This document shows, piece by piece, positions 2,534 through 56,660 of a DNA stretch of 64,000 bases (its first letter is position 1; each line of letters begins with the position of its first letter). The position numbers and the translations under genes are program-made. The DNA comes from Eledone cirrhosa (taxonomy: Eukaryota), in the NCBI GenBank assembly GCA_964016885.1, contig OZ024759.1, forward strand, positions 29,202,001 through 29,266,000, written 5' to 3'. The notes under the pieces were generated by a model. That model did not search any database. It had not been told where the DNA came from and saw only the letters and a program-made list of their open reading frames with translations.

Positions 2534-2728
2534 TCAGACTTGCCAACCCCTAAAAGCCCAAATGGGGAGTACCTTGATTAAAAGTACCCTAGTATGGGAA
2601 GAAATGAGGCAAAATTGGGGAGATTTTATATAATGAAAGCTATACCCATTTTCACAAGAGAAGACATCTTTCATTCACCCTAAAGTGGGTAGATCTCCCT
2701 GTCGGACAGGGAGAGTCGACAGGTCTGA
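2534..2728. mobile_element. short non-autonomous DNA transposon (hAT-like ends)
   Basis: imperfect TIRs CAGACTTGCCAAC / GTCGACAGGTCTG, flanked by TA runs. Confidence 0.5.
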
Positions 2729-5035: not shown

Positions 5036-5267
5036 GCTCAGGTAATAACTGTCATGCTAAGACAGAACTGTTTTAAAGAGTTTGAGAGGTTTGACAACTA
5101 TTTCTAGCAGATTGAACAATTGCATAAAGGGTCCCTTAGCTACACTCACACACGTGATTGTGCATGTATATATATTATATATCGAACTTTCTTCCCTTTC
5201 CAATACAAAGCGTGAAACTAATAAGACTAAGAGAGAGAGTGAGAGACAGGATGGGGAGAGGGGACTT

Positions 5268-5305
<38 letters not shown>

Positions 5306-7356: not shown

Positions 7357-7413
<57 letters not shown>

Positions 7414-7573
7414 CCTATAAGCCAATACAGAAATCATTATTATTATTATTATATATTCTTTCTAACTGTGGCCTAAGGCCAGCTATTTGAGGGCAGGGGA
7501 AAGCTTATTATATCAACCCCAGTACTTAACTCCTACTTTATTTCATTGAAACGCCCTTGGTGTGTGTGATAGC

Positions 7574-7605
<32 letters not shown>

Positions 7606-23683: not shown

Positions 23684-26417
23684 CTAACATAAACACAAGA
23701 CCTTAAATTGGAGGGTAGAAGTACAGGCAATTATATCAAACCCCAATATTTAGTTGGTATGTCATGTTATTACTGATACCATCTACTAGTCGCAACTCCT
23801 GGCAAAAAGAGCAACATGAAATAAAGTATCTTGTTCAAGGATATAACATCACCTAGTCCAGGAATCAAACTCAAAACCTCACAATTACAAATTCAATTCT
23901 CTAACCATTAAGCCTTTCACAATTTGAAAAGGAACCCTTTAAAATGGAGGGGCTTTATTTCATAGAACCAGAATTGGTTAGAGTCCAGAGAGTTGAGGAC
24001 ACATTACAAAGATAAGTAGAGAAGAGAGACAGCAGCAATAGTTAGTGGTGCTGGTGGTGGACAAGTGGAGGGGATGAAGAAGGCTGATTATGTGTGTGCT
24101 TGTGTGCAGGGAATGGGGGCGTACTGAAATCAATATTTTAAGTCTACATAATGCCTATTACCTGATTTGTCTTGCAAGAGAGACCAGACCACCAATTAGT
24201 TAAAACTTGTTAGTTTATTATCATCATTATTATATTATTATTATTGACATTATTATTATTATTATTATCATCATTATGCAGATGATTATGCTTTTATTTT
24301 CATTTATCTTTAAAACATTCCTATTTTTTGTGCTTTTGCGATAAAGAAAATATTATTATCCTTACGGGGGTCGATAAAATAAAGTACCAGTAATGCACTG
24401 GGTAATTGCTGGCCTTGTGCCAAAAAGTAGAAACAATTATTAGTATTAGCAGTAGTAGAAGCAGCAGCAGCAATAACCACACCTTAGTCAAGGAATGATC
24501 ATCACCATTATTATTATTATTAGGGCAGTGGATTGGCAGGACTGTTAAAGTAGCAGACAAAATACCATGTGATATTTGTTCTGGGTCTTAAACATTCTGA
24601 GTTCAAATCTCACCAAGGTCAACTTTGCCTTTCATCCTTCCAGGTGGGTCAATAAAATAAAGTACCAGTCTAATACTGGGGTCAATATAATCAACTTTTC
24701 CCTCCCACCAAATCACTGGCCTCGTGTGTATGGTAAAACCAATTATTGCTATCATTAAAGAAAAGAAAAGAAAAATGCCCTTTTGGTTTTGCTTCCCAGT
24801 GACACACACAACACACTGCCAGATCATCATCATCAACATACTCTTTTACATCTATTTCTCCATGCTAGCATGGGTTGGACAGGTCTTTTCCAACACAGCT
24901 TCCCTCCACTCTTTGCAGTCCTTCAATTTCCCTGACATCATTACATATGCTCCAAACTCCCTTTCTCCAGCTCCAACTTCTTCTTTAGCTAGCTAATTCG
25001 CTGATGCTGTCCCCACACCACAATGCCCAAAAGTATTGACTCTACATTTCTGTCTATATACCATGGTCCTGGTCGCTAGCTTCCTCAGCTGATGGTGATC
25101 AAACGATCAAACAAAAAAAATAAAGATTGAAGAGGACTCTCTTGCTTGGCCAAGTAGATGGTGGTTATAAGAAGAAAATATTTGGCCAAGACTCTCCAGC
25201 TTGGAGTGTGATCAATTAAAGATAATATAGGCCAGAGAAGGCACTTCAGCTGGAATGAGTGGATGGCAATTGAATGGAGACAGCTTGGGTGGTGATCTCA
25301 GGAAGAAAATATTTGGCAGAGAGGAGACTTCAGCTTGGACGGTGATCTAAGGAAGAAAATATTAGCCAGAGAGGAAACTCCAGCTTGGACGGTGATCTAA
25401 GGAAAAAAATATTAGCCAGAGAGGAAACTCCAGCTTGGACAGTGATCTAAGGAAAAAAATATTAGCCAGAGAGGAAACTCCAGCTTGGCCGGTGATCTAA
25501 GGAAGAAAATATTAGCCAGAGAAGAAACTCCAGCTTGGACGGTGATCTAAGGAAGAAAATATTAGCCAGAGAGGAAACTCCAGCTTGGACGGTGATCTAA
25601 GGAAACAAATATTAGCCAGAGAGGAAACTGCAGCTTGGACGGTGATCTAAGGAAGAAAATATCAACCAGAGAGGAAACTCCAGCTTAGATGATGGTCAAT
25701 CAGAGACAATATATGCTAGAGAGGAGACTTCAGCTGGAAAAAAATGGATGGTGATCGGAGACAATATAGGTCAGAGAGGAATCTCCAACTTGAAAGGTGA
25801 TCTAACGAAGAAAATATTTGGCAGAGAGGAGACTCCAGCTTGGATGGTGATCAATCGGAGATAATATAGGTCAGAGAGGATTCACAGCTTGGCAGAATGA
25901 ATAACAAACCTCTCCAGTACAGGTGCCACAATAAAAAGTATCTGTTGCCAATTTTACATTTATATATATTAAGAACAAAACTAGGTTTCACATTGAGGTT
26001 TTTATTGATTAGGCTCAGTTACAAACGTTTCATAGATGGGTGGCTCAAGATCCATATTAGTGTTACAGATCCAACTCCAGCTCTAATCTACTCATCAAAC
26101 TTGTTCGGTCTATGACACTGGCTCCTGAGTCACCCATCTGTGAAACGTTTGTAAATGAGCTTAATCAATACAAACCTCGTTTTGTTCTTAATGTATTACA
26201 CTCTGCTATAGCATAGAGTGCTAATATTGATACCTTCCTCAGTAAACCACAAAACTACTGAATCATCTAGTATATATATATGTATGAGGTGTTTAAAAGA
26301 AATTAGATATCATTTGGGATGTAAATATCCCAGAATCTTCAAAGTCTAGGTCAACAAAACTGAAATTATTTACAACTCAAATGATATCAAATATTTTTAA
26401 ACATTTTAAACACCCTG

Positions 26418-26452
<35 letters not shown>

Positions 26453-28214
26453 CATAGTATAATATAATGCTTGAAATTTTTATGGGTGTGAAATATGACA
26501 GAAAAAATGTGATGGTACTGCCTGTGGATGAGACAGATTTAATATTAAATGTTGTGTGTATGTACGTGTTTATATATTTATATATATAATATGGAACGCA
26601 TCCAAGCAACCTTACTACAAATATATATATATATTTGATTAAAGCAACAGTCAAGCCTCCAGTTGTTTTATTCAGATTAATATTTAACTCCATGTGAATG
26701 AGATGCATAATGGAGAGTGTTTTCCCTACTATTACATCATGATCAACTAAAAAGAATGACCAGTTCTATCCAGTAGTGAACCACAAAACATGTATGTGTG
26801 TGTGTGTGTGTGTGCGTGTGTATGTATGTATGTATGTATGTATGTATCTATCTATCTCCATGTGATATTGATGAATGTGAGAATTACTCAATATCAAAGT
26901 AGAGTTTAATAATTTTCTTGGATTAGTGATGAGACCTGTTACTCTGCCTAATGATCCTGACAATACAAAGGTGAAACTCCAGAGTAACAAGACTCTTCCT
27001 TAACCATAATATATATATATAGGAGACACACATCAAGGATATAAGTAAACCTGAAAAAAAGGAGCCTGAATAACAAACACAAAAAAGAAACCCTAGAGAA
27101 ACTGAAAAGGTATAACAGAAATTGAGAGATAGATGTGTGTGAGTGTGTGTGTATATATATATATACAAACACACACATTTATATATATACAGAGTCTCCC
27201 CCCCCCCCCCACACACACAAAAAATGTATCACACTTCAGGAATAGAAAAACCTGTATAAATATTCAACTTGTTTAACCATTCAGCATTTAAACCGGCCAT
27301 ATCCGGCCAGAACTCTCTCACCTCTTTCTGTTTAAACCGGCTGTAACTGGCCACTTATACTTATGTTAAGGTATTGTTCTCAAAATAGATAATATCAAAA
27401 TCTCGTAGAATTTAATATTAGGTGAGGTAAAGCCTTTACCGTGAAAATACAATAGTAAATATAGAGTAATGTAAACGCTAAAGGGTTAAATACCTCTTTC
27501 AAAAGTTAGATAACAAATTACGGTAACACTGTGTACTGTAGCAAATTAATATTAAAATAGTTACACAAATTTTTCTTTTCCTGAAGTGCGTAAACATTTT
27601 ATTGGCAGACTGTGTGTAAGTGTATATATATATGTATATATAATATGTAGATTCCTGAGATGTGTCAGGAGGTAAACACAGTTAAAAAAAGTACTCAATA
27701 CATAGGTAGAGTATCGACATATTTTATTTTATATAGTAATGACTTCTACAGGACTTTCCTGATGATTTCATATGAATGAAACAGTTCTAGTCCTGTAGAA
27801 GTTATTTCTATATAAAATAAAATATATCAAGTTTAATATAGAAATGACTTCTATAGAACTTTCCTGATAATTTCTTTTGAATGAAATAGTTCTAGTCCTG
27901 TAGAAGCCATTTCCTATATTAAACTCGATGTTTGCACTCTACTAATGTATTGAGTACCTTTACTAACTGTGGTATCCTCCGACTCACATAAGATTAAATA
28001 TACATATATTTGTATACACATACATATATATATATATATATACATACATACATATATACATACACACACACATATATATCTACATACACATATAAATATA
28101 TATGCATATACACACACACATATATATATGTATATATATGTATATGCTAGCATGGAAGATGGACGTTAAACGAAGATGATGATATATATGTGTGTGTGTG
28201 TATATATGTATATA

Positions 28215-28289
<75 letters not shown>

Positions 28290-29116
28290 TTATGTATATA
28301 TATATATATGTGTCTGTGTATATATGTATATATATGTGTGTATATATATAAATATATGTGTGTGTGTATATACATATACATATATACACACACATATATA
28401 TACATACACATATATATATATGTAGAGAGAGAGAAGGGAGGTCTTGGTTAAAATCTGTAAAATATAAAACACATAACGTCATTTACACAGCAACAGAAGG
28501 AAAGGGTGATGGCAGGTAGGGTATGGGAGTGGGACAGAGGTCAGGAAGTATGGGTTTACCTGTCTCGGTTTTTCGTAAGTAATGATCGTTCGATTCCCTC
28601 CATCAAGTTCTCAAAACACTGGGCCATCGCTGGCTGTTTGTCTGCTGGCTGGCTGGAAATGATGCTGTCCTTCAACTTATGGAAATACTGACGAAACGAC
28701 ACGAGGAAGAGGAAGAAAAAAGAAGGAAAAAAAAAAAAAAGGAGAATATAACACCTTGGTAACAACATTATCAAATATTGTTGTCATAGTTACAGTTACC
28801 AACATTATCAAATGTTGTCATAGTTACAGTTACCAACATTATCAAATATTGTTGTCAGTTACTGTTAACAACAATAACATACACCAACATTTCCACTCTA
28901 GGTGCAACCATGTGGTTCTGGATCTAATGCCACTGTGCAGCACCTTGGGTAAGTGTCTTCTACTGTAGCTACAGACTGGCCAATACCTTCTCACTGAGAT
29001 ATGGTAGATGGAAACAACAAGATATTTACAATCCCGCAAATATGCGGTGGTTTCCACAAACAATTATTAGCTAGGCTCTATGGGAAATTCCGCCAATGTT
29101 AGGGGTACACTGTATG

Positions 29117-29155
<39 letters not shown>

Positions 29156-32100
29156 GACGTAGAATAAGAAAATTTTAAAAATTAAAAATTAACTTACTAA
29201 AATTTTAGTAAGTTAATTTTTAATTTTTAAAATTTTCTTATTTTACATCTTTCATATAATTGTTCTGCACCCCCCTGCATAGAACCACCTAGGTACTGAC
29301 ATAACTTATATATTTGCTAGCATTAGTGTACATCTGTACGCATATGTTGGTAGATGTACTAATTCTCTCTATATATATATATATGACTAGAACAGGTGAA
29401 AGAGTATATGATTTCACTGCCCTGTGTGTGTGTGTATATATATATATATATTAAACCTTGTTTTTAGTACCCACACAGCTCTTTTCGTTTCATATCATTT
29501 TATATATATATATATATAAATTCATACATATAAATATATTTATATGTATAAATATATTTATACATATAAATGAAGTATTTCCGTAGGCTACAGAGCTTTT
29601 TAGTTATGTAATAACTAGTAAATGAAATAATTATCTTATGTTGTTTATTGCACATTTTTTCGGGCGTATGTGTTACCCATATAAAACTGTCTCCCTCTAT
29701 TGGGGAAAATCGACTAATTTTTAAATTGCATTTGTGATAATATTTTACACGTTTTTATTGTATGTAAACTTCCCCCTTTGTATTTGACCCCTTCTTTTGT
29801 GTCCCTGTGGCTAATAAAGCAACACATATATATATATACACACATACATGTGTATGTTTATGAGTCTGTGCTTATGTCCAGTAGCTTATTAGTTTGACAA
29901 AAAAGTTCAATAAAAATAAGTACCAGTGTTGACGTGATTGACTAAATGAAGGCAGTGCCCCAGCATGCCCATAGTCTTATGACTGACTGAAACCCCGTAT
30001 ATGAGTAAAAAGATAAGTTTACTTACATCTTCATTCAGCAAGATCAGGCCCAGAAGGGGCCGAGACATGGACCACTGGTTACGACAGTCTTCAAACATGA
30101 TAATATTTAAAACGGTTGATAACATCTGGAATAGAAAAACAGATAAGTGAGCTTGAAGGAAATCCCTCAAAAGCATACTCGTTTAGTTTAACCCCTTAGC
30201 ATTTACATTACTCTATATATACTATTATATCTCCATCGTAAAGGCTTTACTTCACATTATTATCTCAGATGATATCAAATCTATAAGATTTTGATGTCAA
30301 TCATTTTGAGAACAATACCGTAACATAAGTATGAGCAGCCAGTTACAGCCAGTTTGAACAGAAAGAGGTGAGAGAATCCTGGTCAGATATGGCCAGTTTA
30401 AATACTTGCGATACAGCCTATTTGAAACAACCCCTTGAGTCTATCATACAAAACTGTCTATTTGAAAATGTTTATATTTATCTAAAAATCTTACTTCATA
30501 ATTTTATGCAAAAACCTTTGTTAAGAAATCTTCCAAACACCTGCTTATCCCTTTTGATACAGCACACTTGAAACAACCTCTTGTTTCTACGACACAAACT
30601 TTGCCCTCCTCACCTGTTGTAAAATTTCTGGGTGGACTTCAAGGATTCTGAGGAATGCTTCACTGTCTCGTATGTTGGTCGGATGATTCTTCTTTTTCTT
30701 TCGAGTTAGACGTCGAAATAGATATGTGACAATGTTGTCCAGTATTGCACAACAGCCTGTACACACCATAGTATCTAAACATAGAATAAATAACAACACA
30801 ATATTGTTAAATACTGCACATACAATGGCGTTTAAGTATATAGGATAACAATACAATATTGTTCAGTATTGCACAACAGCCTGTACACACCATAATATCT
30901 AAATATAGAATAGATAACACAATATTGATAAATACTGTAAGCAAATTACGGGGTCAATAAAATAAAGCACCAGTAATGCACTGGAGTAATTGCTGGCCTT
31001 GTGCCAAAAATAGAAACATCATTATTAATATTATAACAACAACAACAACACTTACCTAAAGCAGTTAGTCCCTCGGATATTGTAGATAGAATGTAGAGAA
31101 AGACTTGTGGTTCCAAGTTACTGATAAACATCATGTGGTCTTGAGCAAGGCATTCTAGCAATGCATAATAGTTTTGGCTGAGCTTTGGATAATCCTAACA
31201 TTGCAATAGGGAGAAAAAATATAAAACAAAGAATAATAAAAGTTGCTTTCTAACATAGGCACAAGGCCAGCAATTTGAAGAGAAGGTTGTTTATATCCTC
31301 ACACATACATAGACGCACTCAGACACAGTTACTCATAGATATGGAAATGGGAAATGATCATTTGATGTCATACAGTCCAATGAGAGACACACACACACAG
31401 ACATGGAGAAGTGATATAAAACAACCATTTGATATCAAATAGATTAACCTCAGACACATATATACACAGGCACAAACACAGCATCGCAGACTTGGCGAAG
31501 TGGTGTGAGACAACCATTTGGTGCTAAATAAACCAACCTCATACACATAGACACACACAGAGTCGCAGACTTGGAAATGTGATGTGAAATGACAATTCCT
31601 TACCAAAAGATCATTCTGTGGTATAGATAATAATAACTTGACAAACATTGCTAAAGCGTTATCAAGGGCGTCATCACCATAAAGTCTGAACACACCAAAA
31701 TTTACATAGTTTCCACACAGAGCTGCCTTCAACATTGAAAAACATATAGAAATTCCTTTTAACGTGAGAAAGACAAAGAGTTAAGGACAACAGAGCAACA
31801 GTTTTGAAATTTATAAATACCACACTTGAAGTATTGAGGTCACCATAGAAGCCATTGAAAGAGACATTGGTAATTTGTAGATCAAAGAGGTTCTTATTAA
31901 CAGGTAAAAACTAAATATTAACAACAGATCTGAGCTACATGGCGCTGGCTGGCTTCAATGACTGGTCTGCACATGTAATCTTTCCTCCAATGGTCAGTCA
32001 CACAATAAAGAATAGTTCATTTGATAAAGAAGCCCCCCCCCCCCCCCCCCTCACCTCAAAATATTATCAAATATAGAGTAAAACTATCGTTTTGTATTGT

Positions 32101-35100
32101 CAATCTTACTTTACTCTAGTTCCACCAATATATATTTCCTATGTAAATGTGGTTAGTGTTAGGAAAGGCATCCCGCTGTAAAATACCCAGCCAAATTTAC
32201 AGTCCTCGCCAGCGTGGACAACCCATCTAACCCATGCATGGAAAAGTGGACGTTAAACAATGACGACAATTTGCATTATACCACCAGCTTAATAATGAGA
32301 AACTTAGTTGTTTTACTAAATTCATTGAAACATTTTATTTTCAAAAATATTTGAAAATTATAGGCAGTGTCTATAATTTGTCATTTAACACCACATGGGT
32401 GAGCAGACCTAACACCATCACCATCTGGACTCTGGGTGACTTTAAAGTGAGTAGCTCTGAAGATGTGACCCCTATCTTAGTGGGAAAAATGTTTTCAACA
32501 GGAACCACCAAAGATTTTGAGATATAAGCTAACTTGAAAAATTAGAGAAAAAAAAGTTTTCATATTTCAGCCAAAAAAAGGATATTTCATTGGGTACAAC
32601 TGATCCTTAGGAATATCACCAATAGAAAGGATTCGTTCACCTGAAAATATATTAAAAAAATAAACTAGAAAACATTGTTAACAGGTAGGAATATAACAGA
32701 TGATTTCTATCAAGTTATTGTACTTTCTCTTGTACAAATTCTCCGCTAATTTTGAATTATAAATTAGAACCTTTCCCCACTCCATCTAAATAAGAACTTT
32801 TCATGAGCTCGGTTGATCTTGCTAGGGAATCAAACCAGATCAGTTTGAGATGGTTGTTTCTAACAGGAGCTGCTGGAAGGAGTGTTTAAAGACTCTGCCC
32901 CCATGACCCTACCAGGAATAAGTGGGAAGAGGAAGAAGAGGAGCTACTTACCATAACTAACAACAATTTTGCTAATTTCTCTAAACAATAACACACCATT
33001 TGGTGATGAGACATCAAACTGTAACCTCTGTGAGCTGAAAAGAAATATTTAGATAGGGCAGTTTTTAAAACAACATATTAATTTATTCAAATTAACCCCT
33101 TTTGAATTGCCAATAAAATTAAGCCAACACCCATTTTTAAAAGGTTCCTATTTAAATTAAAATCTTTCAACATAACCCACTTTGAAATGTTTTATTTCAT
33201 AAAAACCACCACCTACAAGAGTGGGTTCAAAAGTTCATAGCCCGACTAGGAAGAAGTAATACTAGAGATGTGAAATCTCGCGTGCACTAATTTCAATTCC
33301 TCTAATTAATAATTGCATTGTTTCTTTCCAGGGACTATGTTGAAAAATAAACCTCATTTGGTCATTCCATGGGAGCATCTTTGTTAAACTAAGAACTTTT
33401 CTGCCGCCACTCATATTTTAAAAGGTTTCTATTTAAATTTAAATCTTTCAATATAATTTGATATAAAGGGCCTTTAGTTATGCTACAAACACCATCTTAA
33501 TAATGAAACAATTTTAATATATTACTCCAATCTTCTCTTGTACACTACATTTGATCCCTCCTATACCCAGTTATTCTCTCAGCTCACCCATACTTTGTCT
33601 TACATCCACAGAAGCATGTCAGCTTCATTTTTCTCCAGCCTTCGCATATCTTCTGCATTCGCTGCCAATGTTTCACTACCATGCAACATCACACATCACA
33701 TACAAGTATCATACAGTCGGTCCTTCGTTCATGCAGAGAAATCCTTTGCTATCAACAGAAGTACAGCAGATAGATGTATAATACTATTTACCGATTCTGA
33801 GCCAGCTCAGCCATAAGTTTCAAAACGGGTGTCGTAACAGATGGATCATGATACCATAATTCAACTGCCCGGTGTAATACTGGTGTGTAAGTAGGATAGC
33901 TAGCACTGATTAAGGAAATTATAACAACAACATTGTTATTTTTTAGTACATTATAACATTATCGTTATTTTTAAGGATGTTGTGACATTATCATTATTTT
34001 TAAGGACATTATAACAATATTATCATTATTTTTAAGGATGTTATAAACATTATCATTATTTGTTAGTACAAGGTGTGTCAGGGGGGCAAAAATACCAGCA
34101 CACCTTTGGTACCCAATTTTCAACAACAATACAATATAAAAAAATGTACCAGTAATGTCTTGGGTAAACAAGGAGGTGGGGGTAAAAGATGTACCAGTAA
34201 TATCTTAGATGCGCAAGGAGGTGAGAGGTAAAAGATATGCCAGTAATGTCTTGGGTACACAAGGAGGTGGGCGGTAAAAAATGTACCAGTAATGTCTTGG
34301 ATGCACAAGGAGGTGGGAGGTAAAAGATGTACCAGTTATGTCTTTAGTAGATGGAGAAGGGGTGAAGAAAGAAATACTAGCACATCTTTGGTACAGAATC
34401 TTCAACAATAACAACAACATAAAAGGATACATCCAATCAAAATTCATCATATAACTAGTTTTGGTATTAAAGGCAAACGCAACACCTCGTAAATCTCTGG
34501 CCAGGCCAATTAACGATCTCTACAATTAAAAATTAGAAAAAAACAGAGAAAATTAAGAATCAAAGAAGCCATTATCATCAACAAGAAAAAGACACATAAA
34601 TAAAAAAATTGGAAATGCATGAAGTGGATTGGCTCCTTTAACTGCTCCAAGTACATGAATTTTAGACACTTAGACCAGTTAAGGAAGAATATGTTGATTG
34701 TTCGTTTTTGTTTTGAACCGTTTACATTTTACATTTGAAAAGTGGTTAAAAAAAGAGTAAAGACCACCTTCGGTCACGAATGACCATGGGATTTGCGCAG
34801 ACAAAGTTCTCCTCCAAGGCACAAGTCTGAGCAAGGTTGTTTGTGGAAGACCAGCAGTCACCCATGCATACCAGTCTACCAGTCTCCCCTCTCGACGCCA
34901 CCGATGTTGTCCAAGCGAAAGGCAATGGCTGATACAGCTTGACACCAGAGATGTCACAACATGTATATATATATATGCACTCTATACAATATATACACCC
35001 TATATATGATACACTATATATGATGTCCAAGGGAAAGGCAATGGCCGATACAGCTCGACACCAGTGACATGGCAACTCATTTCTACAGCTGAGTGAACTG

Positions 35101-38100
35101 CAACAACATGAAATAAAGTGCCTTGCTCAAGAATACAACACAAAGCCTGCTCCAAGAATCAAACTCATAACCTCATGATTGTAAACCCGACGCTCTGACC
35201 ACTAAGCCATGTACCTTCACATTTGAAGAGGGTAATAGCCCTGAAGTATGTTGAAATATACTGGGTAAAACGTTACTTTGTTTTGTTTTATTTGTCATAA
35301 TTTTTTGCCCTTTATTATACCTCTACTAGCTTTCTGAAACTTATCAATCGTTATTACAAATTAATATTTAACCTTTGTATCATTCTGGTTGTATGATACA
35401 AAACTGTTTATTATCAAAGTGTTTGTGAAATAATAATAATTATAAACCGCTCACCTTAGCTTCTTCCATTTTGTTTTGGGTGTTTGCATTGGCAAGCATG
35501 TTTCCAACAGCATCAAAAGCAGCTACAATATAAGAGGAGAGACAGAATCATAGAATATAAGATTACATCAAAAGTAAGCTACAATATAGGAAGAGGAGAG
35601 ACAGAATCATGGAATATAAGATTACATCAATAGTAGCTACAATATAAGAAGAGGAGAGACAGAATCGTGGAATATAAGATTACATCAATAGTAGCTACAA
35701 TATAAGAGGAGGAACGACAGAATCATGGAATATAAGATTACATCAACAGTAACTACAATATAAGAGAAGGAACGACAGAATCATGGAATATAAGATTATA
35801 ATATCAAAAGAAGTTTATAATAAATGTGCAGAAAGAGAAATTGAGAAAGGACATAGCTTCTTAGGATTCAAAGATGAATGTTCTCGTTGTTCAGTCAACG
35901 GAAAAATTGCTTGTAAAATTAATGTGCAAGTGGCTGAGCATTCCAGACCCGTAGTCTTAGTATAATTCACAGGGAGATTCAGCACATGACACAGTGTGTG
36001 ATAAGGTCAATCCTTTGAAATACAGGGACTGTCCATCCAACAGGTTCCAAACAGTCATCATCTACCAAATTTCTAAATATCAATCAGATGGTAAATGACA
36101 CTGGCTTAAGATGTCACACAGTGAGATTGAACCTGGGACTCAATAATGGCGATGTAAACTTCTTAATCATTTAGCCACGCAGCGTCCACAATTCATAAGG
36201 CATGGGTTGACATATTAAAGTTAGTTAAAACTTGTTCTAAGCCAGAGGCTCATCAGGTCAGTGCTTATCCCCATTTTCCTTGGCGTTAAGCAATTGAGAG
36301 TACATGACTTTTCCTGAATAGGATGCCAGTATATCACAGGTTTGACTCCCTGCTACTGCTGGTATTCACTTTCAATTGAGTGTACTGGAGCAACGTGAAA
36401 TAAAGTGTTTTGCTCAAGAACACAATGCAACAGCCTGTCCAGGAATTGAACCGATCACATTACAATCATACCTCAATTATCCTAACCATTAGGCCATGCA
36501 TTCTAACCATTAGGTCATGCACCCTCACCATTAGGCCATGTAGCTATGGTAAATAACACTTGCACAAGATATCTCGTAATGGGATCAAACATAGGACCTC
36601 ATGTTTGCAAAGAGAACTCTTTAACTGCTTGGCCAGGTGAAAACAGAATGACAGGACAAGAAAAGTAGATGAAATTCAACAAGAAGAACAACAATGATAT
36701 AGTTACATGTGAGTGGTAACATAAACTGATCAAACTTCTCCTCATCTTCACCCAGGTCTACCAGCAGTAACCTTCCAAGTGCCGTGTAAAACGTGGTCCG
36801 ACACCTCATATCTGCCATAATATTACCATTTGTGTTCACTCCCAGGAATGGAAAGTGGTCACTCTGGAAGAATGAAAGAAAAAAAGTTAGAAAGAATTAA
36901 AATGTAGTGTTTTATAGAAAGAATTAAAATGTAGTGTTTTATATAATCCAAACAGTTTGGATGGGACCACTCTCAAGGGTCGGGATCCGATCACATGATC
37001 AAACACGAGCTGATCAATATAGAAACAATTGTAATATGAAATAAAGTTTACAAAAAGCTGCAATTCTTATTGTCACTCTGCAAACTACAGCCGCCTTAAA
37101 CTTGGAGCACATCCCAACGAGGGAAGGACCCCCGTAACAGCATTGAGTGCTTCGACTAGCGTTACCACTAGTAACCACAAGTTACGCACATAACATATAT
37201 CATCATCCAGCGGCCTCAGCCAAAATGGACTCAACTATTGATCTCCACGTGGGTCTGTCGTTCATTGCCGTTGCCAAGTACTGGATTTCAATACCAGAAT
37301 CTCTGGAGATGACATCGGGATAGGGGAGCTTGCACCCCCCTGTTATTAGTGACTGCTTGTGGTTTCCAAAACCCTAATGGGGACACAGCGACATTGGTGG
37401 CACGATGGCAGTGGCCAGCAAATCTTACTCTCCTTTTACGTACAACGGCAGATATGCGTTGGAGGCCGGCATATATCTCTCTCAAAGTCATATATATATA
37501 TATATGCACACACAGACTGAACTTATGAGTGTGTCAGGCAGTGCATTCAGTAGTAGTAACAGAATAAGTAGTAATAGTAGCAACAGTATTGTTAGTAGTA
37601 ACAAAAAGAGAGTGTGTGAGAACAAAAAATAACCAACTCACTGTGTGGTTATTGAGCATGAGTTGTACAGCCTCCAATTTGACTAGTTTGCGACCACTAC
37701 TATAACCAACTGACAACTCACTCAATAACAGAAGGGTCTTTGTAATAATCTGTTCACTCCGACCCCAATATTTCAGGTTTGTAATGCTGCAGAAAAGAGG
37801 GGAAACATTTTTTTTAAAATTAAAACCATACATTATGTATTATTGTATCGAAATTCAGATAATTCCCTGAGCAAACTAAGGATGTTGAAACGGAGTAGAA
37901 ATTGTTTAGCTTAGCAGTTTCTGCTTCAGCTGTTAAATGGTGTGGGCAAAAGAGGCTTGGTGTGGCGCCAGATGGCAGGAGGACCCCTTGGTTCAATCAA
38001 GAGGTCAAAGATGCCATCCGCACAAATAAGGACATAAAAATGATAATGAAGATGATAGAGTAGAAAACCAATTATATATTACACACACACACACGCAGAC

Positions 38101-39888
38101 ATACACAAAAACAAACACATACATTCATCATCTTCGTTTAACGTCCATCTTCCACGCTAGCATGGGTTAGACATTATGTATTGTTATACAGTTTTACGTC
38201 GCGCTCAGTTTCCCCACTTCCCAGATCGGCAAAAAAGAACATCTGGGCATCATAAGAGATCTGCCCAAGAACTAAACTTTGCATCTTCAACTCCATAAAG
38301 GTGGTACTGCTGTATGAATGGGAAACTTGGAGGACAACAAAGAAGATGCAGCAGAAGATCCAGACATTCTTCAACAATTTCTGAGGCACATCTACAACAT
38401 CAAATGGCCTGAGATCAGAAATGAAGATCTGTGGGAGCGAGTGGAACAAGAACCAATGGCAAAGCAGATTCTGCAGAGGAAGTGGAGGTGGATTGGACAT
38501 ACCCTCAGGAAACCACCTACCAAAACCACACGTCAAGCCCTGACCTGGAACCCACAGAGTAAGAGAAGTCAGTCCCACAGCAGCTAAAGACATGACACTG
38601 AGGCTGAATTAAGAAAACTGGAAGCCAACTGGAGTGGCAAGAGCATTCCAGGATTGTATATGATGGTGGAGGGTCATCAATGGCCTAAGCTCCACAGAGA
38701 GCGATGGGGCTGAATGAATGAATGAATACAGTTTTACATTTTTACATATTTATGTATACAAAATAGTTGAAATATTTCTCAAGTTACAACCAACACTTTC
38801 ACACAAATGGTAGATAGTAAAATAGATATTTGGTAGTTTCTTACATTTTCCCAATAAAAACACTTAATACCATTGATTCATCACTCAACCTTAAAACTTC
38901 GGAAAGTCTTCGGTACACCTAGAAAATATAGAAATATGAATTACATTAAGGATACACGTGTCTGTGAAACACTCAGTCTGTTACATTAAATAATGGTTTC
39001 TGAGTTAAGCAAAAGGCCAACAATTTTGGTGGAGGAGAAAAGTTGATTAAGTCAACTCCAGTGCATTACTGGTATTTTATTTTATCAAGCTCCGTAAGGA
39101 TGAAAGGCAAAGCTAACCTCGAGGATTTGAATCAGAACGTAAAGGGTCGTAACTCTATGCTGAAAAGCATGTTGTCCGACACTCTACCATTGATGCCAAT
39201 CCACTACCCTGATGGTAGTAGTAATGGCTTCTGATTTAGGCCCAAGGCCAACAATTTTGGGGGAGGAGAAGGTCGATCAAATTGGCACCAGAATATAAAG
39301 GGACGTAACTCTATGCAACAAACCATGCCAGATGCTTTAACAATATTGCCAACCCACCGCCCTGATGGTAATAATAGCAACAAGAAAAGATATCTGACCT
39401 TTGAAGTTTTCTGGACTTGATCACCAACATAAATCTTGCGAAACTGTTCAAAGAAACTCAAGATGGCAAGTTCTAGTTTTTCACAACCACTCTGTTGTAA
39501 ACGAGAGTCTGTGAGGTTCATCAACTGTAGCACTCTGGAATAATAATATAGAAATAATAAGCATTATTACATACCCACATGTATGACTGCTACCTACTCC
39601 GTACCAGACCAGCAGTCTTCTCTCATGCACACAACATCGGCTTTCTCTTAAACCCAGTTTTTCTCTCAGTCCATCTGCGCACACACACATGCATGGATGA
39701 AGGACAAGAGTCCGAAACGTTAAGACCCTTTTCCAACTATATCAAGCAAAACACTAATATATTTCTTCATTGTACTGTGTCGTTTGCTTTGTTATTTCTG
39801 TGATAAAGGCATATTGGACACTGGGAAGAATTTTTTTTGTTTTTTGGGGGAAAAGTGCATCCAATAGGACAGCAAATACAGTAACTGA

Positions 39889-51300: not shown

Positions 51301-53114
51301 AAAAACAAACACAGGGGAAAAAGTACTCAATAGCAAAATAGAGTGTATTACATATTTATAATAGGGCGGTGGATTGGCAGAATCGGTAGAGCATCAGACA
51401 TGCTTCGCGGCATAGAGTTCAAATCCTGCCGAGGTTAGCTTTGCCTTTCATTCTTACGGGGGTTGATAAAATAAAGTACCAGTAACGCACTGGGGGTCGA
51501 TTTAGTCGACTTTCCCTTTAAGTTGCTGACCTTGTGCCAAATGAAGAAACAACTATATATTTATTGTATTACTGAGGTTACTCTCTGATGCGACCTCAAA
51601 GGAACAGCAGAGAGTAATCATCATCATCATCATTGTTGTTGTATGTTTACACGCTTCAGAAATAAGAAAGAGTCCAAGAAAAAGGTGTCCTCAAAAAACT
51701 GATGCACCCTGTTATATCACATAAACAAAGGGTCAAGAGGACCCTTTAGTTGTGTCATGGACATGACAGCCTTCCTAGTGTTGGTAAACGCATCCAGAAA
51801 CCCCCACTGTATGAAACAAACTGTCTAACTCATGCAAGCATGGAAAATAGACATTAGACAAACAAATATATATATCTGATAGATATGTTAGATTCACCAA
51901 TAAGTATTCCAGTTGTTCAATCAATAGAATAGCCCACTAACAAAATTAATGTGTTAACGACTGGGCACTCCACAGACATGTACCTTTAAAATAAGTCTCA
52001 GGGAGATTTAGCATGACACAGTGTGTGACAAGGCTGGCCTTTTGAAATACAATTACAGTTCATCTTGTATTACAGTATAAGTGGCTGAGCACTCCATGGA
52101 CAGGTGTACCTTTAAGATAAGTCTCAGGGAGATTCAGCATGATACAGTGTGTGATAAAGCTGGCCTTTTGAAATACAGTTACAGTAGTCCATCAGACAAA
52201 TTTCCAAACAGTTTCCGTCTACTTGATTTCACTCACGAGGCAAGGGTCAACCTGAGGCTAAGATAAAAGACACTTGTCCAAGAAGTCACACTGGGGCATT
52301 GAAACTGGGACCTAATGAAAGTGAAGAGAACTCCTTAACCGTTCAGCCATGCAATTACGCTTCTAATGGGAATATCAAATTATTCTGGTGGTCAGTGAAA
52401 ACTTTGGATAAAACATGGATAGTGGTGGAAGTAAAAAGAAAGCTTATCAATTAACATGAATCATTGTGTCCAGTAGATAAATAACTAACAGGCTTGAGAC
52501 AACTGGACTGCAAGGTGGAATGTCAGGGTCAAATCATTTATGGGATTTTATGTAGAGTTAAAGACTAAACTGACTAACTCTTTTCATACCAAGTTACCTA
52601 AAACTATCTCTGGTTCTATTATAAAAAAAAAACCTGCTTGTTTTAAAATGTTTATATTTATCTAAAGTTAGAACTTTTGTTAAGCTATGCCCCAAGCACC
52701 CAGGTTCAATTTTCTGGAAGAACCTTTGTTAAGCTATGCCCCAAGCACACAGGTTCAATTTTCTGGAAGAACCTTTGTTAAGTTATGCACCACCCAATCC
52801 AGGAATGGCAGCCATGATCTTATGGTTTTGATTCCTTCCCCCTAACCACAAGGCAACGCTCCACCCAGTCCAGGAATGCCACCCACAACCTTATAGTTTT
52901 CAGTTCATCACGTTAACCACAAGAGCACAAAAAAAAAAAAACTAAGCGTGTGTTGGATTGTACTTACATTTCCTCTTTCTAACAAAAGTTGACATTTACT
53001 AAGACAATCTGGGGAAGAGGCAAAAGCAACGAGGGCCTTCTCAGCATCACTACGTAAACTGCTGTCAGCAGTTTCATACATCTGCTTGCACAGATTCTCC
53101 AGCTGCAGTAGTTC
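11276..53114 (-). CDS. XPO7: Exportin-7 (RanBP16), 29 coding exons traced, 1096 aa; first ATG exon not located
   Basis: The spliced translation runs [15 protein letters not shown]...[25 protein letters not shown]...[22 protein letters not shown]...[18 protein letters not shown]...DMMSYT*, collinear with vertebrate XPO7. All exon phases join (3291 nt including stop). Confidence 0.97.
14480..15372. repeat. ~30-bp minisatellite
   Basis: TCAATTTGACATGTCCCC.AAA.AC...G, many diverged copies. Confidence 0.9.
15580..16665. repeat. compound minisatellite (~34-bp array switching to a 24-bp array)
   Basis: CAGGGTACATAGCAGTATTACAGACACACCACAA, then CAGCTGGGTACATCGCCAGTATTA. Confidence 0.95.
19340..19690 (-). 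mobile_element. degraded CR1/L2-group LINE 3' fragment
   Basis: ..[14 protein letters not shown] remnant on the minus strand. Confidence 0.55.
19899..20390. repeat. 24-bp minisatellite
   Basis: CTACGCTCCACTCGCAACCGAGAG, about 20 copies. Confidence 0.95.
21515..21835. repeat. 46-bp minisatellite derived from a dispersed-repeat segment
   Basis: CACAATAAAATGTACCCAGTACACTCTGTAAAGTAGTGG..., about 7 copies. Confidence 0.9.
22309..23411 (+). mobile_element. Helitron remnant (5' TC terminus and PIF1-helicase C-terminal fragment)
   Basis: A|TCTATATTATAAAGC start; [39 protein letters not shown] at ~23210-23411; continuity between the two parts is inferred. Confidence 0.7.
25170..25895. repeat. 50-bp minisatellite
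   Basis: CAGCTTGGACGGTGATCTAAGGAAGAAAATATTAGCCAGAGAGGAAACTC, 7 near-identical copies (25331-25680) with degenerate flanks. Confidence 0.95.
28560..28687 (-). CDS. XPO7: XPO7 exon [10 protein letters not shown]...KNRD
   Basis: AG/GT, 128 nt. Confidence 0.95.
30027..30125 (-). CDS. XPO7: XPO7 exon [33 protein letters not shown]
   Basis: AG/GT, 99 nt. Confidence 0.96.
30614..30774 (-). CDS. XPO7: XPO7 exon TMVCTGCC...EILQQ
   Basis: AG/GT, 161 nt. Confidence 0.95.
31056..31194 (-). CDS. XPO7: XPO7 exon [10 protein letters not shown]...LTAL
   Basis: AG/GT, 139 nt. Confidence 0.95.
31604..31763 (-). CDS. XPO7: XPO7 exon [17 protein letters not shown]...NDLL
   Basis: AC acceptor, GT donor, 160 nt. 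Confidence 0.95.
31764..32585 (-). other. U12-type AT-AC intron of XPO7
   Basis: 5'ss ATATCCTTTT; branch site TCCTTAAC (31780-31787); ends ...tttctcAC|G TTA AAA GGA; restores [13 protein letters not shown] in frame. Confidence 0.95.
32586..32640 (-). CDS. XPO7: XPO7 exon [17 protein letters not shown]
   Basis: 55 nt; followed by ATATCCTTT donor. Confidence 0.93.
32952..33034 (-). CDS. XPO7: XPO7 exon [13 protein letters not shown]...VSY
   Basis: AG/GT, 83 nt. Confidence 0.95.
33520..33765 (-). mobile_element. RTE LINE fragment
   Basis: degenerate match to 56170-56400 (KGFS, RLYD, MLHGSET, RLEKNEA). Confidence 0.75.
33792..33899 (-). CDS. XPO7: XPO7 exon [19 protein letters not shown]...AQN
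   Basis: 108 nt. Confidence 0.95.
33900..34430 (-). other. U12-type (minor spliceosome) GT-AG intron of XPO7
   Basis: 5'ss GTATCCTTTT; branch site TTCCTTAAT (33909-33917) 9 nt before the end TAG; no polypyrimidine tract. Confidence 0.93.
34431..34519 (-). CDS. XPO7: XPO7 exon [12 protein letters not shown]...NFDW
   Basis: 89 nt; followed by U12 donor GTATCCTTTT. Confidence 0.95.
35455..35522 (-). CDS. XPO7: XPO7 exon AFDAVGNML...EEAK
   Basis: AG/GT, 68 nt. Confidence 0.93.
35521..35800. repeat. ~57-bp minisatellite containing an XPO7 splice acceptor
   Basis: AGCTACAATATAAG..GAGACAGAATCATGGAATATAAGATTACATCAATAGT x5. Confidence 0.9.
36707..36863 (-). CDS. XPO7: XPO7 exon SDHFPFLG...FMLPLT
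   Basis: AG/GT, 157 nt. Confidence 0.95.
37190..37470 (-). mobile_element. RTE-type LINE 3' fragment (second lineage)
   Basis: [19 protein letters not shown] motif. Confidence 0.65.
37642..37786 (-). CDS. XPO7: XPO7 exon [11 protein letters not shown]...NNHT
   Basis: AG/GT, 145 nt. Confidence 0.95.
38225..38727 (+). mobile_element. RTE (BovB-like) LINE 3' fragment
   Basis: [37 protein letters not shown]; (TGAA)n tail. Confidence 0.8.
38845..38918 (-). CDS. XPO7: XPO7 exon VYRRLSEVL...FIGK
   Basis: AG/GT, 74 nt. Confidence 0.95.
39399..39534 (-). CDS. XPO7: XPO7 exon [12 protein letters not shown]...KTSK
   Basis: AG/GT, 136 nt. Confidence 0.95.
39949..40054 (-). CDS. XPO7: XPO7 exon [10 protein letters not shown]...GELVC
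   Basis: AG/GT, 106 nt. Confidence 0.95.
40559..40691 (-). CDS. XPO7: XPO7 exon [13 protein letters not shown]...AVQQ
   Basis: AG/GT, 133 nt. Confidence 0.95.
41503..41560 (-). CDS. XPO7: XPO7 exon [19 protein letters not shown]
   Basis: AG/GT, 58 nt. Confidence 0.95.
41819..41991 (-). CDS. XPO7: XPO7 exon [13 protein letters not shown]...HVAL
   Basis: AG/GT, 173 nt. Confidence 0.96.
42386..42532 (-). CDS. XPO7: XPO7 exon [15 protein letters not shown]...TSLR
   Basis: AG/GT, 147 nt. Confidence 0.96.
43460..43579 (-). CDS. XPO7: XPO7 exon [16 protein letters not shown]...EHPQ
   Basis: AG/GT, 120 nt. Confidence 0.95.
43789..43862 (-). CDS. XPO7: XPO7 exon [14 protein letters not shown]...SSM
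   Basis: AG/GT, 74 nt. Confidence 0.95.
45500..45626 (-). CDS. XPO7: XPO7 exon [10 protein letters not shown]...PTSWRS
   Basis: AG/GT, 127 nt. Confidence 0.95.
46692..46841 (-). CDS. XPO7: XPO7 exon [12 protein letters not shown]...DDSQ
   Basis: AG/GT, 150 nt. Confidence 0.95.
47138..47615 (-). mobile_element. Helitron 3' fragment with intact terminus
   Basis: [27 protein letters not shown] helicase remnants; 3' hairpin ACCC..GGGT then CTAG followed by T. Confidence 0.85.
47634..47777 (+). mobile_element. tRNA-derived SINE family B (CORE-like centre)
   Basis: TGGCTTAGTGGTTAGAGC...GAGTTCAATTC...CCTTGAGCAAGACACTT. Other copies ~13440-13572, 23790-23920, 35075-35220, 36360-36500, 45220-45440, 56680-57090. 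Confidence 0.8.
48435..48512 (-). CDS. XPO7: XPO7 exon [10 protein letters not shown]...NQLSE
   Basis: AG/GT, 78 nt. Confidence 0.93.
49391..49486 (-). CDS. XPO7: XPO7 exon [12 protein letters not shown]...KFIQ
   Basis: AG/GT, 96 nt. Confidence 0.95.
50308..50378 (-). CDS. XPO7: XPO7 exon [12 protein letters not shown]...SLVQ
   Basis: AG/GT, 71 nt. Confidence 0.95.
51173..51266 (-). CDS. XPO7: XPO7 exon [10 protein letters not shown]...EQRIDI
   Basis: AG/GT, 94 nt. Confidence 0.95.
51364..51550 (+). mobile_element. tRNA-derived SINE family A (representative copy)
   Basis: A-box-like GGATTGGCAGAATCGGTAGAGC, B-box GAGTTCAAATCC, body TTTGCCTTTCATCC..GATAAAATAAAGTACCAG. Many other copies: ~5900-6313, 7610-8070, 11660-12295, 18510-18720, 20652-21270, 24523-24750, 38995-39365, 44818-45035, 62900-64000. 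Confidence 0.85.
52968..53114 (-). CDS. XPO7: XPO7 exon [10 protein letters not shown]...LLERGN
   Basis: tttag|...|gtaag, 147 nt. Confidence 0.95.
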
Positions 53115-53357
53115 CTAAAGAGAGAGAAATAGAGACATACAGATAAACACTGAATTTATATACCAGCAAAACAATCATAATAAAACTCATGGTCACATCA
53201 CCACCACTTTGTGCATCTACTAAGTAACAAGAAACCATCTAAAAGTATAATATATATATATATATACTATAGTAAAAGTTAGGTGGGGATATCCAAGAGT
53301 AAGAGCACTCAGTCCATAGGACAAGTTCAGTATAAATAATTACAACAGTGACATAGG

Positions 53358-53405
53358 CAGATACTCAAGTTTCGTTGGGTTCTGGGCCCCAACTCATTCA
53401 GCCTG
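53358..53405 (-). ncRNA. candidate minimal type I hammerhead ribozyme (inverted twin, sense to XPO7 pre-mRNA)
   Basis: CAGG CTGAATGA GTTGGG gcccagaa CCCAAC GAAAC ttga GTA TCTG. Confidence 0.65.
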
Positions 53406-53416
53406 TCATGAGAAAA

Positions 53417-53464
53417 CAGGCTGAATGAGTTGGGGCCCAGAACCCAATGAAACTTGAGTACCTG
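53417..53464 (+). ncRNA. candidate minimal type I hammerhead ribozyme
   Basis: stem I CAGG/CCTG; core CTGA(A)TGA with a one-base insertion; stem II GTTGGG/CCCAAT; GAAA; stem III AC-TTGA-GT; GUA cleavage triplet. Confidence 0.65.
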
Positions 53465-55799
53465 CCTATGTCACTGTTGTAATTATTTATATATATATAT
53501 AGGGTTGTAATGTTCCAGATTCCAACTGTCAAGTTTTGCTCCCTTCTGGACTCTCTTTGGGGTCTCAGGATACAGAATCTTTACAAGATGTTAAGAATTA
53601 ATAAAAGGGGGCCCCCCAGTCTCATCATGAAAAGCCACATGAAATTAAGGGTCTTGCTCAAGAACACAATGTGACATTGAGACCAGGAATTGCACCCAGA
53701 AACTTATAATTGTGAGTCCAACACCTTAACCACATGAGCAGGGTGTGGCCAGTTGGCCATGCCATACCTTGCTCATAGTGGGACCGTGTTTTGGTTGGAT
53801 TTTTACGGCTGCTCGATGCCCTTTCTAACACCAACCACGTTTACAGCATGGGACACATACACAGATATATATATATATATACATACACACATGCATGCAA
53901 ATATACAGCAGCAACAGCAATAGTGGTGGTTGTGGTTGTGATGGTGGTCTTTGTTGACTACAAAGCTACTAGTAAAAGTAGGTGTATATAGTAGTTTAGA
54001 GTTATTTTAGTCAGACAGTGATAGTTAAACCACCACTAATACCACAGATAATAGACCCTGGCCGGACGGTCAATATAAGTGACCAGTACAACCATATGTT
54101 TGTTGGTTGGCTTGTTTCTTTCTTAATTTGTTTAGGTTATTTTTATCTGTGTGCATGTGTGTATATATATACACACACAAATATATATATATATATATAT
54201 GACCATTTCATTGGCTCTACAGACAAAAGAACTATAACCCTCAATTGCAGACAATTTTAGTGCATCACCAACTTGGATCCAATTTCAAAAGACTTTTTCT
54301 GTGTCTATTCTTAGTCATCACTCTCTCTCACACAGAGTGAAGACATAGTTTAGTGGCGAGAGTGTTAGACTCACAACCACAAGTTCAATTCCTGGACTGA
54401 CCAATGGGTGCATTACGCTGTAATGTGGTAGTGTTGGTGCCACTACCACATTACAGTGTGTGTGTTTTATTGTGGCCCCGACACTACCACATTACAGCGT
54501 ACACTGGGTGTGTTTTATCTTGCCACCCACATTACCACATTGCAAAGTACACTGGATGCATGTTATCATGGAACCAGCATTACCACATTACAGTGAACAC
54601 TGGGTGAAATTTTACAGAGCACCCTGGGTGAAATTTATGATGGCACCAACATTACCACTTTAATATATAAAACAATTTTCTTCTCTGCCTCACCCTCCAA
54701 CATATTTTTTGTTACATCATCGTTCAAACATTAACATTTTGAATTTCTTTCTCTTATAAGATTTATTAAAGGTTAAAAAGGAAAAAAAAACAGAAAAATA
54801 AATAAATAAAATACATGATAAAGTGAATGTTTATAAAAATATGTCATAGAAATCAATATACCATTAAACATTTTTAAATGGAATATATTTAATTAGAAAT
54901 ACAGCAAGTTATTCTGAGAAAAATTTTTTTTCTTTATTCTTTTTAAATATTTGAAATTGTTATCAACATCATTATCATCAAGCAGTGTTCCACACCCACA
55001 CCCCAATAAACCATATTTAAACTAATTCTTGAATAGTTCCAAAAGATCTTTTCACAGAAAAATCTAAAGGAGAATTTTTATTTTTTTTTCAAAGAATACA
55101 ATTTATCTCATAAGATTCTGTACTGGATGAAACCACATTTGCAAGCCTTTCTTGAAAAGTACAAAACAGCACTATAACTGCACTGTATTAGTTAAAACAC
55201 TGTGAGAGTTTTTCACAACGATCTGCCCACTAGTAAAGATACTAGAAACATTTGAATTAACAAACTACATTAGCAAGATATTCTTTAAAAGTACAAAACA
55301 ACACCATGATTGCATCACATCATAAATTAATGTCTCTAATACTACAAATTTTCTCTAATACTGCAAATTTTCCCAATGATCTACGTACTCATAAATATAC
55401 TATAAACATTTGAATTAACAAACCCATTTTCAGATATTTTCTGCTAAATGATTACAGGATGTTATGGGTTAATAAAACGTTAACTAAAATCATTGCTATT
55501 TCATATATCTGCAAAAAATAATAAAAGGAAGGGAGTAACAAATACAATTTGAATAGCATGGTGCCCTTCTCATGATGCCCCAAACATATGCATTTAAAAT
55601 CATTTCATCATGTAAAAAAAGTGCTAAATATATCTATACAAACGCAATTTATATAAGAACTGAATGGAGATAGAAGACTGGTAAAGTTCATCTCAACTCA
55701 TGTGTGAAAGAACTGGAATATTAAATGGCTTCCACCTGAGGTTAACTATTTTCTTTATCATTGTTCATATTCGTCTTTGTTATTTAACTCACAACATGT

Positions 55800-56660
55800 T
55801 GATAAGTAGAAGAGAGGACAATACTCTGATTCCATCGGGGAAATGGCCATGTTCGATATGTAGGAAAGGAACTGGCATAAATTCCATAAAATGTACGCAA
55901 TGCAGATCTTGGGTACACAAGAGATGTAGTGGAATAGCAGGCAAACTAACAGGTAGAGAAAACTACATATGCAGTAGATGTACAGGGAAAGTTGGCAATA
56001 GTAATCGCAGTGATAGACACATTTTTCCAATGCAGGTGGGTTCTATAGAAGTGGTTGATAGCTTCCGGTACCTAGGTGATCAGATTAGCATGGGAGGGGA
56101 GTGTTCCAAGGCCATAGTATCTAGAATAAGGACGGGTTGGAAGAAGTTTAGGGAGCTGCTTCCTCTGTTGACAAAGAAGGGTTTCTCCCTGCATACGAAA
56201 GGACGGTTATATGATGCCTGTGTGAGATGCGCAATGCTGCATGGTAGTGAGACATAAGCAGCAACTGCAGAAGATATGCAACGGCTGGAGAGAAATGAAG
56301 CAAGTATGCTCCGTTGGATGTGCAATGTCAATGTGTGTGATCAACCAAGCATAGACGAGTTGAGAAAGAAACTGGGTATAAGTTGTGGTGTGCAGGAGAG
56401 AAGGCTGAGATGGTATGGACATGTGATGCGCATGGAGGATGACCGCTGGGTAAAGAAGTGCCAAGAAATCCCAGTAGAAGGAAGACGCAGTAGAGGTAGA
56501 CCACAAAAAACATGGGCGGATGTGGTGAGAGCAGACCTCAGATCGCTGAAACTCACCGAGGAGATGACAAAGGACTGTGACAAGTGGAGAGATGCTGTGC
56601 TGAATAGGACCCGTCCAACCCTTGCAAGCAGGGAAAAGCGGACGTATGATGATTATGATG
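55800..56660 (+). mobile_element. 5'-truncated RTE LINE with a PHD-like Cys/His finger, interrupted by a stop codon
   Basis: CSIC..CTQCRSWVHKRC..CSRC, then FRYLG, MLHGSET*, RRLRWYGHVMRM, GRPQKTW; 3' tail CCAACCCTTGCAAGCAGGGAAAAGCGGACG(ATG)n. Confidence 0.9.

Follow-up and report, generated by a model that had tools for sequence, protein, structure and literature searches.

Penelope-like elements are described as inserting in a characteristic form, in which a shorter inverted pLTR lies next to a direct one that may carry a 31-bp tail, the two being mostly head to head (PMC3846280); the same architecture, with (TA)n targets in several clades, is described in PMC8557442. The tail has been explained by two internal priming sites, the element's protein cuts AT-rich DNA with extension on both strands and, for a lizard element, the ribozyme is protein-assisted and dispensable for insertion in vitro (PMC11167929). 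The minimal hammerheads of these elements have a U-rich 5′ side, a 6-bp stem II closed by G-C, a palindromic stem III and an AU-rich 3′ side, and their activity is low and confined to dimers (PMC4209133). The same source describes dual minimal hammerheads in Schistosoma, 100-700 bp apart on opposite strands, and places the end of an intron at helix I in the D. virilis element. In O. vulgaris, Penelope-like elements make up 6.83% of the genome, in 190 families (PMC13282606).

We analysed a 64,000-nucleotide stretch of Eledone cirrhosa DNA (the window), in which a reading of the letters alone (the sequence-only reading) had noticed two hammerhead-like motifs of opposite strand within a long hairpin close to an exon of XPO7. 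The hairpin is, in our assessment, very probably the scar of a single Penelope-like insertion, of known architecture but carrying a core variant that we did not find on record for the class. The XPO7 locus itself is ordinary, being an insertion scar; what is new is the 8-nt core of the family, CUGAAUGA, the architecture of the insertion being already known.

Location of the insertion

The arms of the hairpin (53331-53406 and 53416-53491) match each other as reverse complements in all but two of their 76 positions (74/76) and enclose a 9-nt loop (53407-53415), in agreement with the 76-bp arms, two mismatches and 9-nt loop first described; the mismatched pairs are 53361/53461 and 53374/53448. 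The hairpin is a real, non-random feature. It lies 216 nt (about 215 nt in the sequence-only reading) before the acceptor, at 53116-53115 on the minus strand, of an XPO7 exon at 52968-53114 (minus strand), which encodes residues 6-54 and is 100% identical to Octopus sinensis exportin-7. No coding sequence for the first five residues was found between this exon and the end of the window, and since these residues are not encoded upstream within it, the site of insertion is likely to be intron 1 of XPO7. The orthologous contig of a second organism (run X4, below) ends at 53234, short of the insertion. The coding segments of XPO7 were recovered as 30 tblastn pieces over 15410-53114 on the minus strand, the coding first exon lying either beyond 64000 or in a form that was not recognised, and a PDB search with the exon returned designed repeat proteins only.

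An abundant repeat with Penelope-like ends

Mapping of reads and contigs to 52940-53625 at 80% likeness covered four of the 14 runs listed (X1, X4, X10 and X12), X1 and X4 being contigs of two different organisms and X12 raw reads of another sample. Over 53262-53500 the summed contig depth was 2,591-43,770 in X1 and 140-7,820 in X4, against 13.2 and 24.1, respectively, on unique exon sequence, and over 53285-53491 it was 4,906-43,770 and 1,655-7,820. Repeat and unique flank differ in this measure by two to three orders of magnitude in two organisms, summed contig depth being a contrast of depth and not a copy number. The raw reads of X12 pile up on the repeat in the same way, and X10 gave only three contigs, none with an arm-length match, which is too little to call the repeat absent from that run. 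The hairpin thus belongs to an octopus repeat of very high abundance, of which it is a single copy, and this repeat is larger than the hairpin.

The whole insertion, as delimited by contig depth, occupies 53262-53500 between two (TA)n runs and consists of a tail, a direct copy and an inverted copy. The tail (53262-53330, minus strand), also delimited by contig depth, is a one-sided 3′ extension of about 65-70 nt that ends in (TA)n, and over 53285-53330 the depth in X1 is 25,345-36,759. Arm alignment and contigs define the other two parts: the direct copy (53331-53415, minus strand) comprises the left arm and the 9-nt loop, runs in the XPO7 sense direction and is truncated at its 5′ end at about 53415, whereas the right arm (53416-53491, plus strand) is an inverted, 5′-truncated copy without the tail. 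The (TA)n run in which the tail ends (53246-53266), identified from the sequence and from loose ends of contigs, is the likely target site, and a second run (53487-53500; sequence and contigs) lies at the end of the inverted copy. From the tail, 48 X1 and 38 X4 contigs exit into TA repeats, as do 39 and 30 contigs at the right end, where the tail extension is absent. The hairpin had been called TA-flanked, which holds for its right side; on the left, the repeat extends by the length of the tail before (TA)n is reached. Past 53416, 60 X1 and 34 X4 contigs carry on into sequence that they have in common and that is U-rich in the ribozyme sense, which indicates that the loop belongs to the left copy and that the inverted copy, the right arm, is the shorter one. 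Depths summed in mirrored bins from the 3′ end to the centre fell about tenfold in X1 (~71,000, 47,000, 23,000 and 7,000) and about fivefold in X4 (~15,500, 11,200, 7,500 and 3,300), which is a gradient of 5′ truncation. At 38556-38575, 20 nt match the tail, but the match has no extension and was taken as chance.

The one-sided tail, the adjacent inverted 5′-truncated copy and the (TA)n ends match the published signature of Penelope insertion. By this analogy the repeat appears to insert like a Penelope element, and its membership of the class is likely. With the insertion units of EN+ Penelope elements, as far as the available parts of PMC3846280, PMC8557442 and PMC11167929 describe them, it shares a tail at one end only (on the left alone does the repeat include such a part, 53262-53330), a shorter inverted copy joined head to head at a variable junction, 5′ truncation with a fixed 3′ end (the mirrored-bin depths), an AT-rich or (TA)n target, and a hammerhead close to the 3′ end. 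In this copy as in others (TA)n stands at both ends, a target duplication cannot be read inside (TA)n, and an empty site was not encountered. The octopus insertion differs from those units in that it is only 240 bp long, has no ORF and no readable target duplication, and has a tail of about 65-70 nt against the 30-40 bp described. The length of the tail counts against a Penelope origin, as do the unreadable target duplication, the change of G8 in much of X1 depth (below), a core that is not the published CUGANGAH and the fact that no RT or GIY-YIG frame could be tied to the repeat in 23 frames and the metagenomes searched. Pfam searches on 29 frames (23 of them non-XPO7; a chosen subset, mostly from 125 frames) found no RT or GIY-YIG domain in these frames. 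The arm motif is absent from the supplement files of Craig 2021 (PMC8557442) and from the supplement of the O. vulgaris repeat paper (PMC13282606), which contains no repeat library. Animal non-LTR retrozymes (bioRxiv 10.64898/2026.07.22.740005), in the part of that preprint available, resemble the octopus repeat in being non-coding, in having a type I hammerhead and in their proposed derivation from Penelope; they are, however, head-to-tail tandems with a hammerhead per unit, whereas the octopus insertion is a head-to-head pair, with no tandem or other same-strand copy within the 64-kb window. As its fallback the sequence-only reading had proposed an inverted remnant of Penelope terminal repeats with minimal dimer-type hammerheads, and the tail, the inverted copy, the other loci described below and the architecture in the literature all support it.

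Such a scar could have formed by target-primed reverse transcription, in which a Penelope-type RT/GIY-YIG protein would have started at the element's 3′ end and stopped early, just 5′ of the ribozyme. A fold-back or a second priming on the same template would then have made the inverted arm, leaving a short 3′-end copy with its tail and a shorter inverted copy joined head to head at a TA-rich spot of the XPO7 intron, and each arm would later have acquired one C-to-T change. The motif of the parent element would cleave only when two copies pair up as a dimer via the self-complementary stem III. In XPO7 pre-mRNA, the arms would form a 76-bp duplex that is a likely target of ADAR hyper-editing and is removed with the intron, and the two hammerhead-shaped motifs are predicted to stay paired and silent.

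The sequence differences among repeat copies, as represented by 40 of 175 rows listed, bear on the history of the two arms. At 53465-53466 (mirror 53357-53356) both arms have C,C, where T is found in 98.9% and 89% of the depth in X1. Two rare substitutions common to both arms make it likely that the arms were copied from one template in a single event, or were homogenised later, and that the two mismatches arose afterwards. The mismatches reflect one private C-to-T change in each arm, at 53361 (the other state in 92% of X1 depth) and at 53448 (74%). It had been argued that both become tolerated G-U pairs in the ribozyme folds; they do form G-U pairs, but as private C-to-T changes from the family state they say little about tolerance, since a C-to-U change within a G-C pair always leaves G-U. 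The change shared by both arms removes a fifth pair of stem I that is kept in most copies.

Hammerhead motifs of the two arms

On each strand there is a 4-bp stem I, the core CUGAAUGA, a 6-bp stem II, GAAA, a 2-bp stem III that closes on the loop UUGA, and the triplet GUA, with cuts predicted after 53460 (plus strand) and after 53362 (minus strand). The earlier description of a complete type I hammerhead in each arm is borne out as to shape on both strands by a type I descriptor (stem I of at least 4 bp, stem II of at least 6 bp, stem III of at least 2 bp, and 1-2 bases between CUGA and GA), which matched these two sites only in the 64-kb window, once in 300 dinucleotide shuffles of the window and never in 20,000 shuffles of the arm. 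Rfam hammerhead models, which the sequence-only reading had suggested as a check, gave no match at gathering in the window, and no hammerhead was among the 27 matches at E ≤ 10 in 53100-53700. Rfam microRNA models match well below gathering on both strands, as for any long hairpin, and a microRNA precursor was rejected on these models.

The right-arm motif (53417-53464, plus strand) has its core at 53421-53428, stem II at 53429-53434 and 53443-53448, and the self-complementary stem III at 53452-53459, whereas the left-arm motif (53358-53405, minus strand; C3 at 53401) carries its private C-to-U change in stem I and is predicted to misfold. Both resemble the minimal type I hammerheads of Penelope-like elements, as presented in the available part of Cervera and de la Pena 2014 (PMC4209133), in their short stem I, G-C closed 6-bp stem II, very small self-complementary stem III, flanks rich in U on the 5′ side and in AU on the 3′ side, and 8 nt between stems I and II. 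Of the features given for that class, GAAA, the NUH triplet, stems I and II and the G10.1-C11.1 pair were found, this pair being G-U in the right arm but G-C in the left one, as it is in 74% of X1 depth. At the position of helix I, where the intron of the D. virilis element ends, the octopus left copy has a pyrimidine tract and AG, a candidate splice site.

Folding predictions are consistent with a motif that needs a partner. In monomers the pairing probability of stem III was 0.003 and 0.15-0.16 (0.003-0.16 overall), and the stem III octamer, reported earlier to be self-complementary with G-U wobble, indeed forms an 8-bp self-duplex of −5.8 kcal/mol with two G-U pairs. A palindromic stem III that would allow a dimer is present in both arms, and a near-optimal active dimer is predicted for the right arm only: its active dimer has −30.0 kcal/mol, against −31.2 for the dimer optimum (a gap of 1.2) and −27.2 for two monomers. 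For the left arm, in the XPO7 sense, the active dimer has −28.8 against an optimum of −38.4 kcal/mol, and the monomer is also predicted to be misfolded, with a stem I pairing of 0.01. Whole-arm folding z-scores (−1.1 and −1.3) were not significant. Among copies, a perfect palindrome takes the place of the stem III loop in 25% of the depth in X1, 56% in X4 and 81% (263/324) in X12, which fits what a dimer model predicts. The change of G8 in 54% of the depth in X1, 2% in X4 and 12% in X12 speaks against uniform activity; in one organism much of the family is without the catalytic core, and a core-dead subfamily may possibly have been amplified there. At 53393-53395, the mirror of G10.1 and G8, about half of X1 depth is changed at both, in a stretch that seems to end near 53400; in X4 the figure is only 2-4%.

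A core with an additional base

The core does not follow CUGANGA(H), that of the minimal Penelope hammerhead; it reads CUGAAUGA, with an extra base before G8, and on this sequence we class the XPO7 hairpin's hammerhead as a variant rather than a canonical member. The extra base stands before G8 and not after A9, where the published Penelope consensus (CUGANGAH; PMC4209133) has it, so the '^cuganga' descriptor of that paper would miss CUGAAUGA. The string is absent from the one PMC4209133 supplement file searched, and we did not find it described for Penelope elements in the literature and supplements covered, although Lunse et al. or another Cervera supplement may already show the core. One natural hammerhead with an A6a insertion in its core has been tested and had low activity (Perreault et al. 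2011, PMC3088659, in the part available); it and the phage and metagenome hammerheads described next resemble the octopus motif in having one extra base after A6.

Complete folds with the exact CUGAAUGA core were found in 3 of 120 metagenome matches listed (control 0.16) and in 5 of 121 phage matches listed (control 0.52), whereas two other 8-nt cores gave 1/121 and 0/120 complete folds among the matches listed. In the metagenome they lie at L015 ~415-495 (plus strand), L020 ~100-170 (plus) and L078 ~640-725 (minus), with no Rfam match, and in phage they lie in L124, L145 (two copies), L174 and L237. Seven are of type III and one (L237) is of type I, and L145 has different stems in its two copies, both of which still pair. 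The core thus recurs in nature and is, to judge from these folds, probably tolerated. These hammerheads differ from the octopus motif in being mostly of type III with a stable stem III, the octopus motif being minimal, of the dimer type and part of an animal repeat. A metagenome scan with the octopus family's own motif gave no match; a looser scan gave at least 120 loci, and among the matches listed there was none whose type I stems reached 3+4 bp and none that matched the element by blastn.

These findings have to be set against a less favoured but quite conceivable account, in which a canonical Penelope hammerhead was disabled by the extra base before the family amplified and no copy has cut since. 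The low activity of the A6a case would be in keeping with it (PMC3088659), as would the observation that ribozyme mutants did not impair insertion of the lizard element in vitro (PMC11167929) and the alteration of G8 in more than half of X1 depth. Against it, the exact core recurs in complete folds above control in both phage and metagenome while the other 8-nt cores scarcely do, and the variants of stem III remain self-complementary. Loss of activity of this kind concerns the ribozyme only and is compatible with the hairpin being a Penelope scar.

The family is of modest value as a handle on an abundant octopus repeat whose core variant is missed by CUGANGA-based searches, and counts of animal ribozymes may for that reason be too low. 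More boldly, and only as a tentative proposal, octopus genomes might hold thousands of Penelope-like copies with a working dimer-type CUGAAUGA hammerhead, a rare core otherwise found in phage ribozymes and invisible to Rfam and to the descriptor, which would scatter double-hammerhead hairpins into introns and feed ADAR hyper-editing.

Copies elsewhere in octopus genomes

Pieces of other copies were compared as 19 of 3,036, the longest being preferred, 16 of them from X1 or X4. Both arms were spanned by 11 of these 16 listed X1/X4 pieces, with 13-26 other letters and 2-16 gap letters, and these differences indicate that other loci carry the inverted pair. Joints were available as 15 of 36, each from one contig at 80% likeness and 14 of them from X4; they comprise five strand switches and nine skips from left arm to right arm, a tenth skip into the flanking repeat being excluded. 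The inversion points of these listed joints are many and different. In eight of the nine listed skips both cores are missing from the aligned part (among these, three have unknown letters between and one a decayed core between), and in one both cores are kept. Three of the five listed strand switches lie within 53408-53412, where the ribozyme has its outer edge, and the XPO7 copy switches there too; this clustering is a lead only. Four listed joints fall at 53408-53415, again at the outer edge, and in three of the nine listed skips the inverted arm starts 1-2 nt before the predicted cut site (53458-53459); both counts are too small to test.

It is improbable, in the light of these joints, that the hairpin moves ready-made as a non-autonomous element, either MITE-like with a TA target or as a small retro-parasite using Penelope proteins. 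Near-perfect terminal inverted arms that end in TA would suit such a unit, as would the long pieces that cover both arms with so few gap letters and the three strand switches and one skip at 53408-53415, and the recurrence of near-full-length double-hammerhead hairpins is also expected from a unit that moves as a hairpin. The centres vary between copies, however, eight of the nine listed skips lack both cores in the aligned part (with the unknown letters and decayed core noted above), the tail is on one side only, and 94 contigs proceed 5′ of the ribozyme with no fold-back. A MITE of the Tc1/mariner type was rejected, given the one-sided tail, the variable centres and the copies that continue 5′. 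The family's short inverted insertions, being numerous, would lend themselves to testing genome-wide how the inverted arm of Penelope-like elements is made, and if the point of truncation is set by the ribozyme or its cut site.

Possible editing of the hairpin

The leading idea of the sequence-only reading was an intronic, self-inhibited ribozyme which dsRNA editing or unwinding might in principle unlock. In a co-opted form of it, ADAR editing or a helicase would open the hairpin and the freed hammerhead would cut XPO7 pre-mRNA. The geometry is as that reading described it, both cores are intact in sequence, and hyper-editing is very high in octopus, palindromic repeats and lizard Penelope elements being heavily edited (PMC5625713, in the part available). 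On the XPO7 strand, however, the hairpin is predicted at −140.3 kcal/mol against −57.7 for the best fold that keeps a ribozyme, a gap of about 83 kcal/mol. The hairpin remains the best fold (−72.4 kcal/mol) when all 22 adenosines of the antisense arm are kept from pairing, and a loose one (−38.1 kcal/mol, predicted) persists when this is done for every non-core adenosine in the two arms. Twenty random edits among the 44 adenosines would spare the five core adenosines with a probability of 0.039. Within the 64 kb there is no partner on the same strand for the required dimer, misfolding is predicted for the XPO7-sense arm as a monomer and as a dimer (values above), and the stem I pair kept in most copies is lost from both arms. 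With the inverted pair present at other loci as well, a co-opted ribozyme switch in XPO7 is hardly credible.

Editing of the hairpin as such is plausible, but its effect would be to damage the ribozyme and not to release it. One of the arm mismatches is A-C on the XPO7 strand, a pairing that ADAR prefers and whose editing would tighten the duplex. We found no paper in the literature searched that joins hammerhead, inverted repeat, antisense, ADAR and self-cleavage. The amniote intronic hammerheads (RECK and C10orf118; available parts of PMC6155905 and PMC3088659) also lie in introns of host genes; they are single, canonical, conserved and active, whereas the octopus one is a copy of a repeat, with private damage, locked in a duplex.

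Neighbouring sequences

A fragment of a second repeat (53501-53582; summed depth ~1,600-3,200 in X1 and X4) adjoins the insertion. Its minus strand reads LTVGIWNITT, which we take to recall the start of an RTE-type LINE endonuclease; Pfam gave no match on the 26 residues. In the same intron and opposite to XPO7, a 190-codon frame on the plus strand (55685-56254) contains a PHD finger (Pfam E 1.6e-7) and may possibly be a remnant of a LINE ORF1. Three tandem arrays, at 16142-16765, 19877-20452 and 25231-25885, comprise two of 24 bp and one of 50 bp, with copies mostly 85-95% alike.
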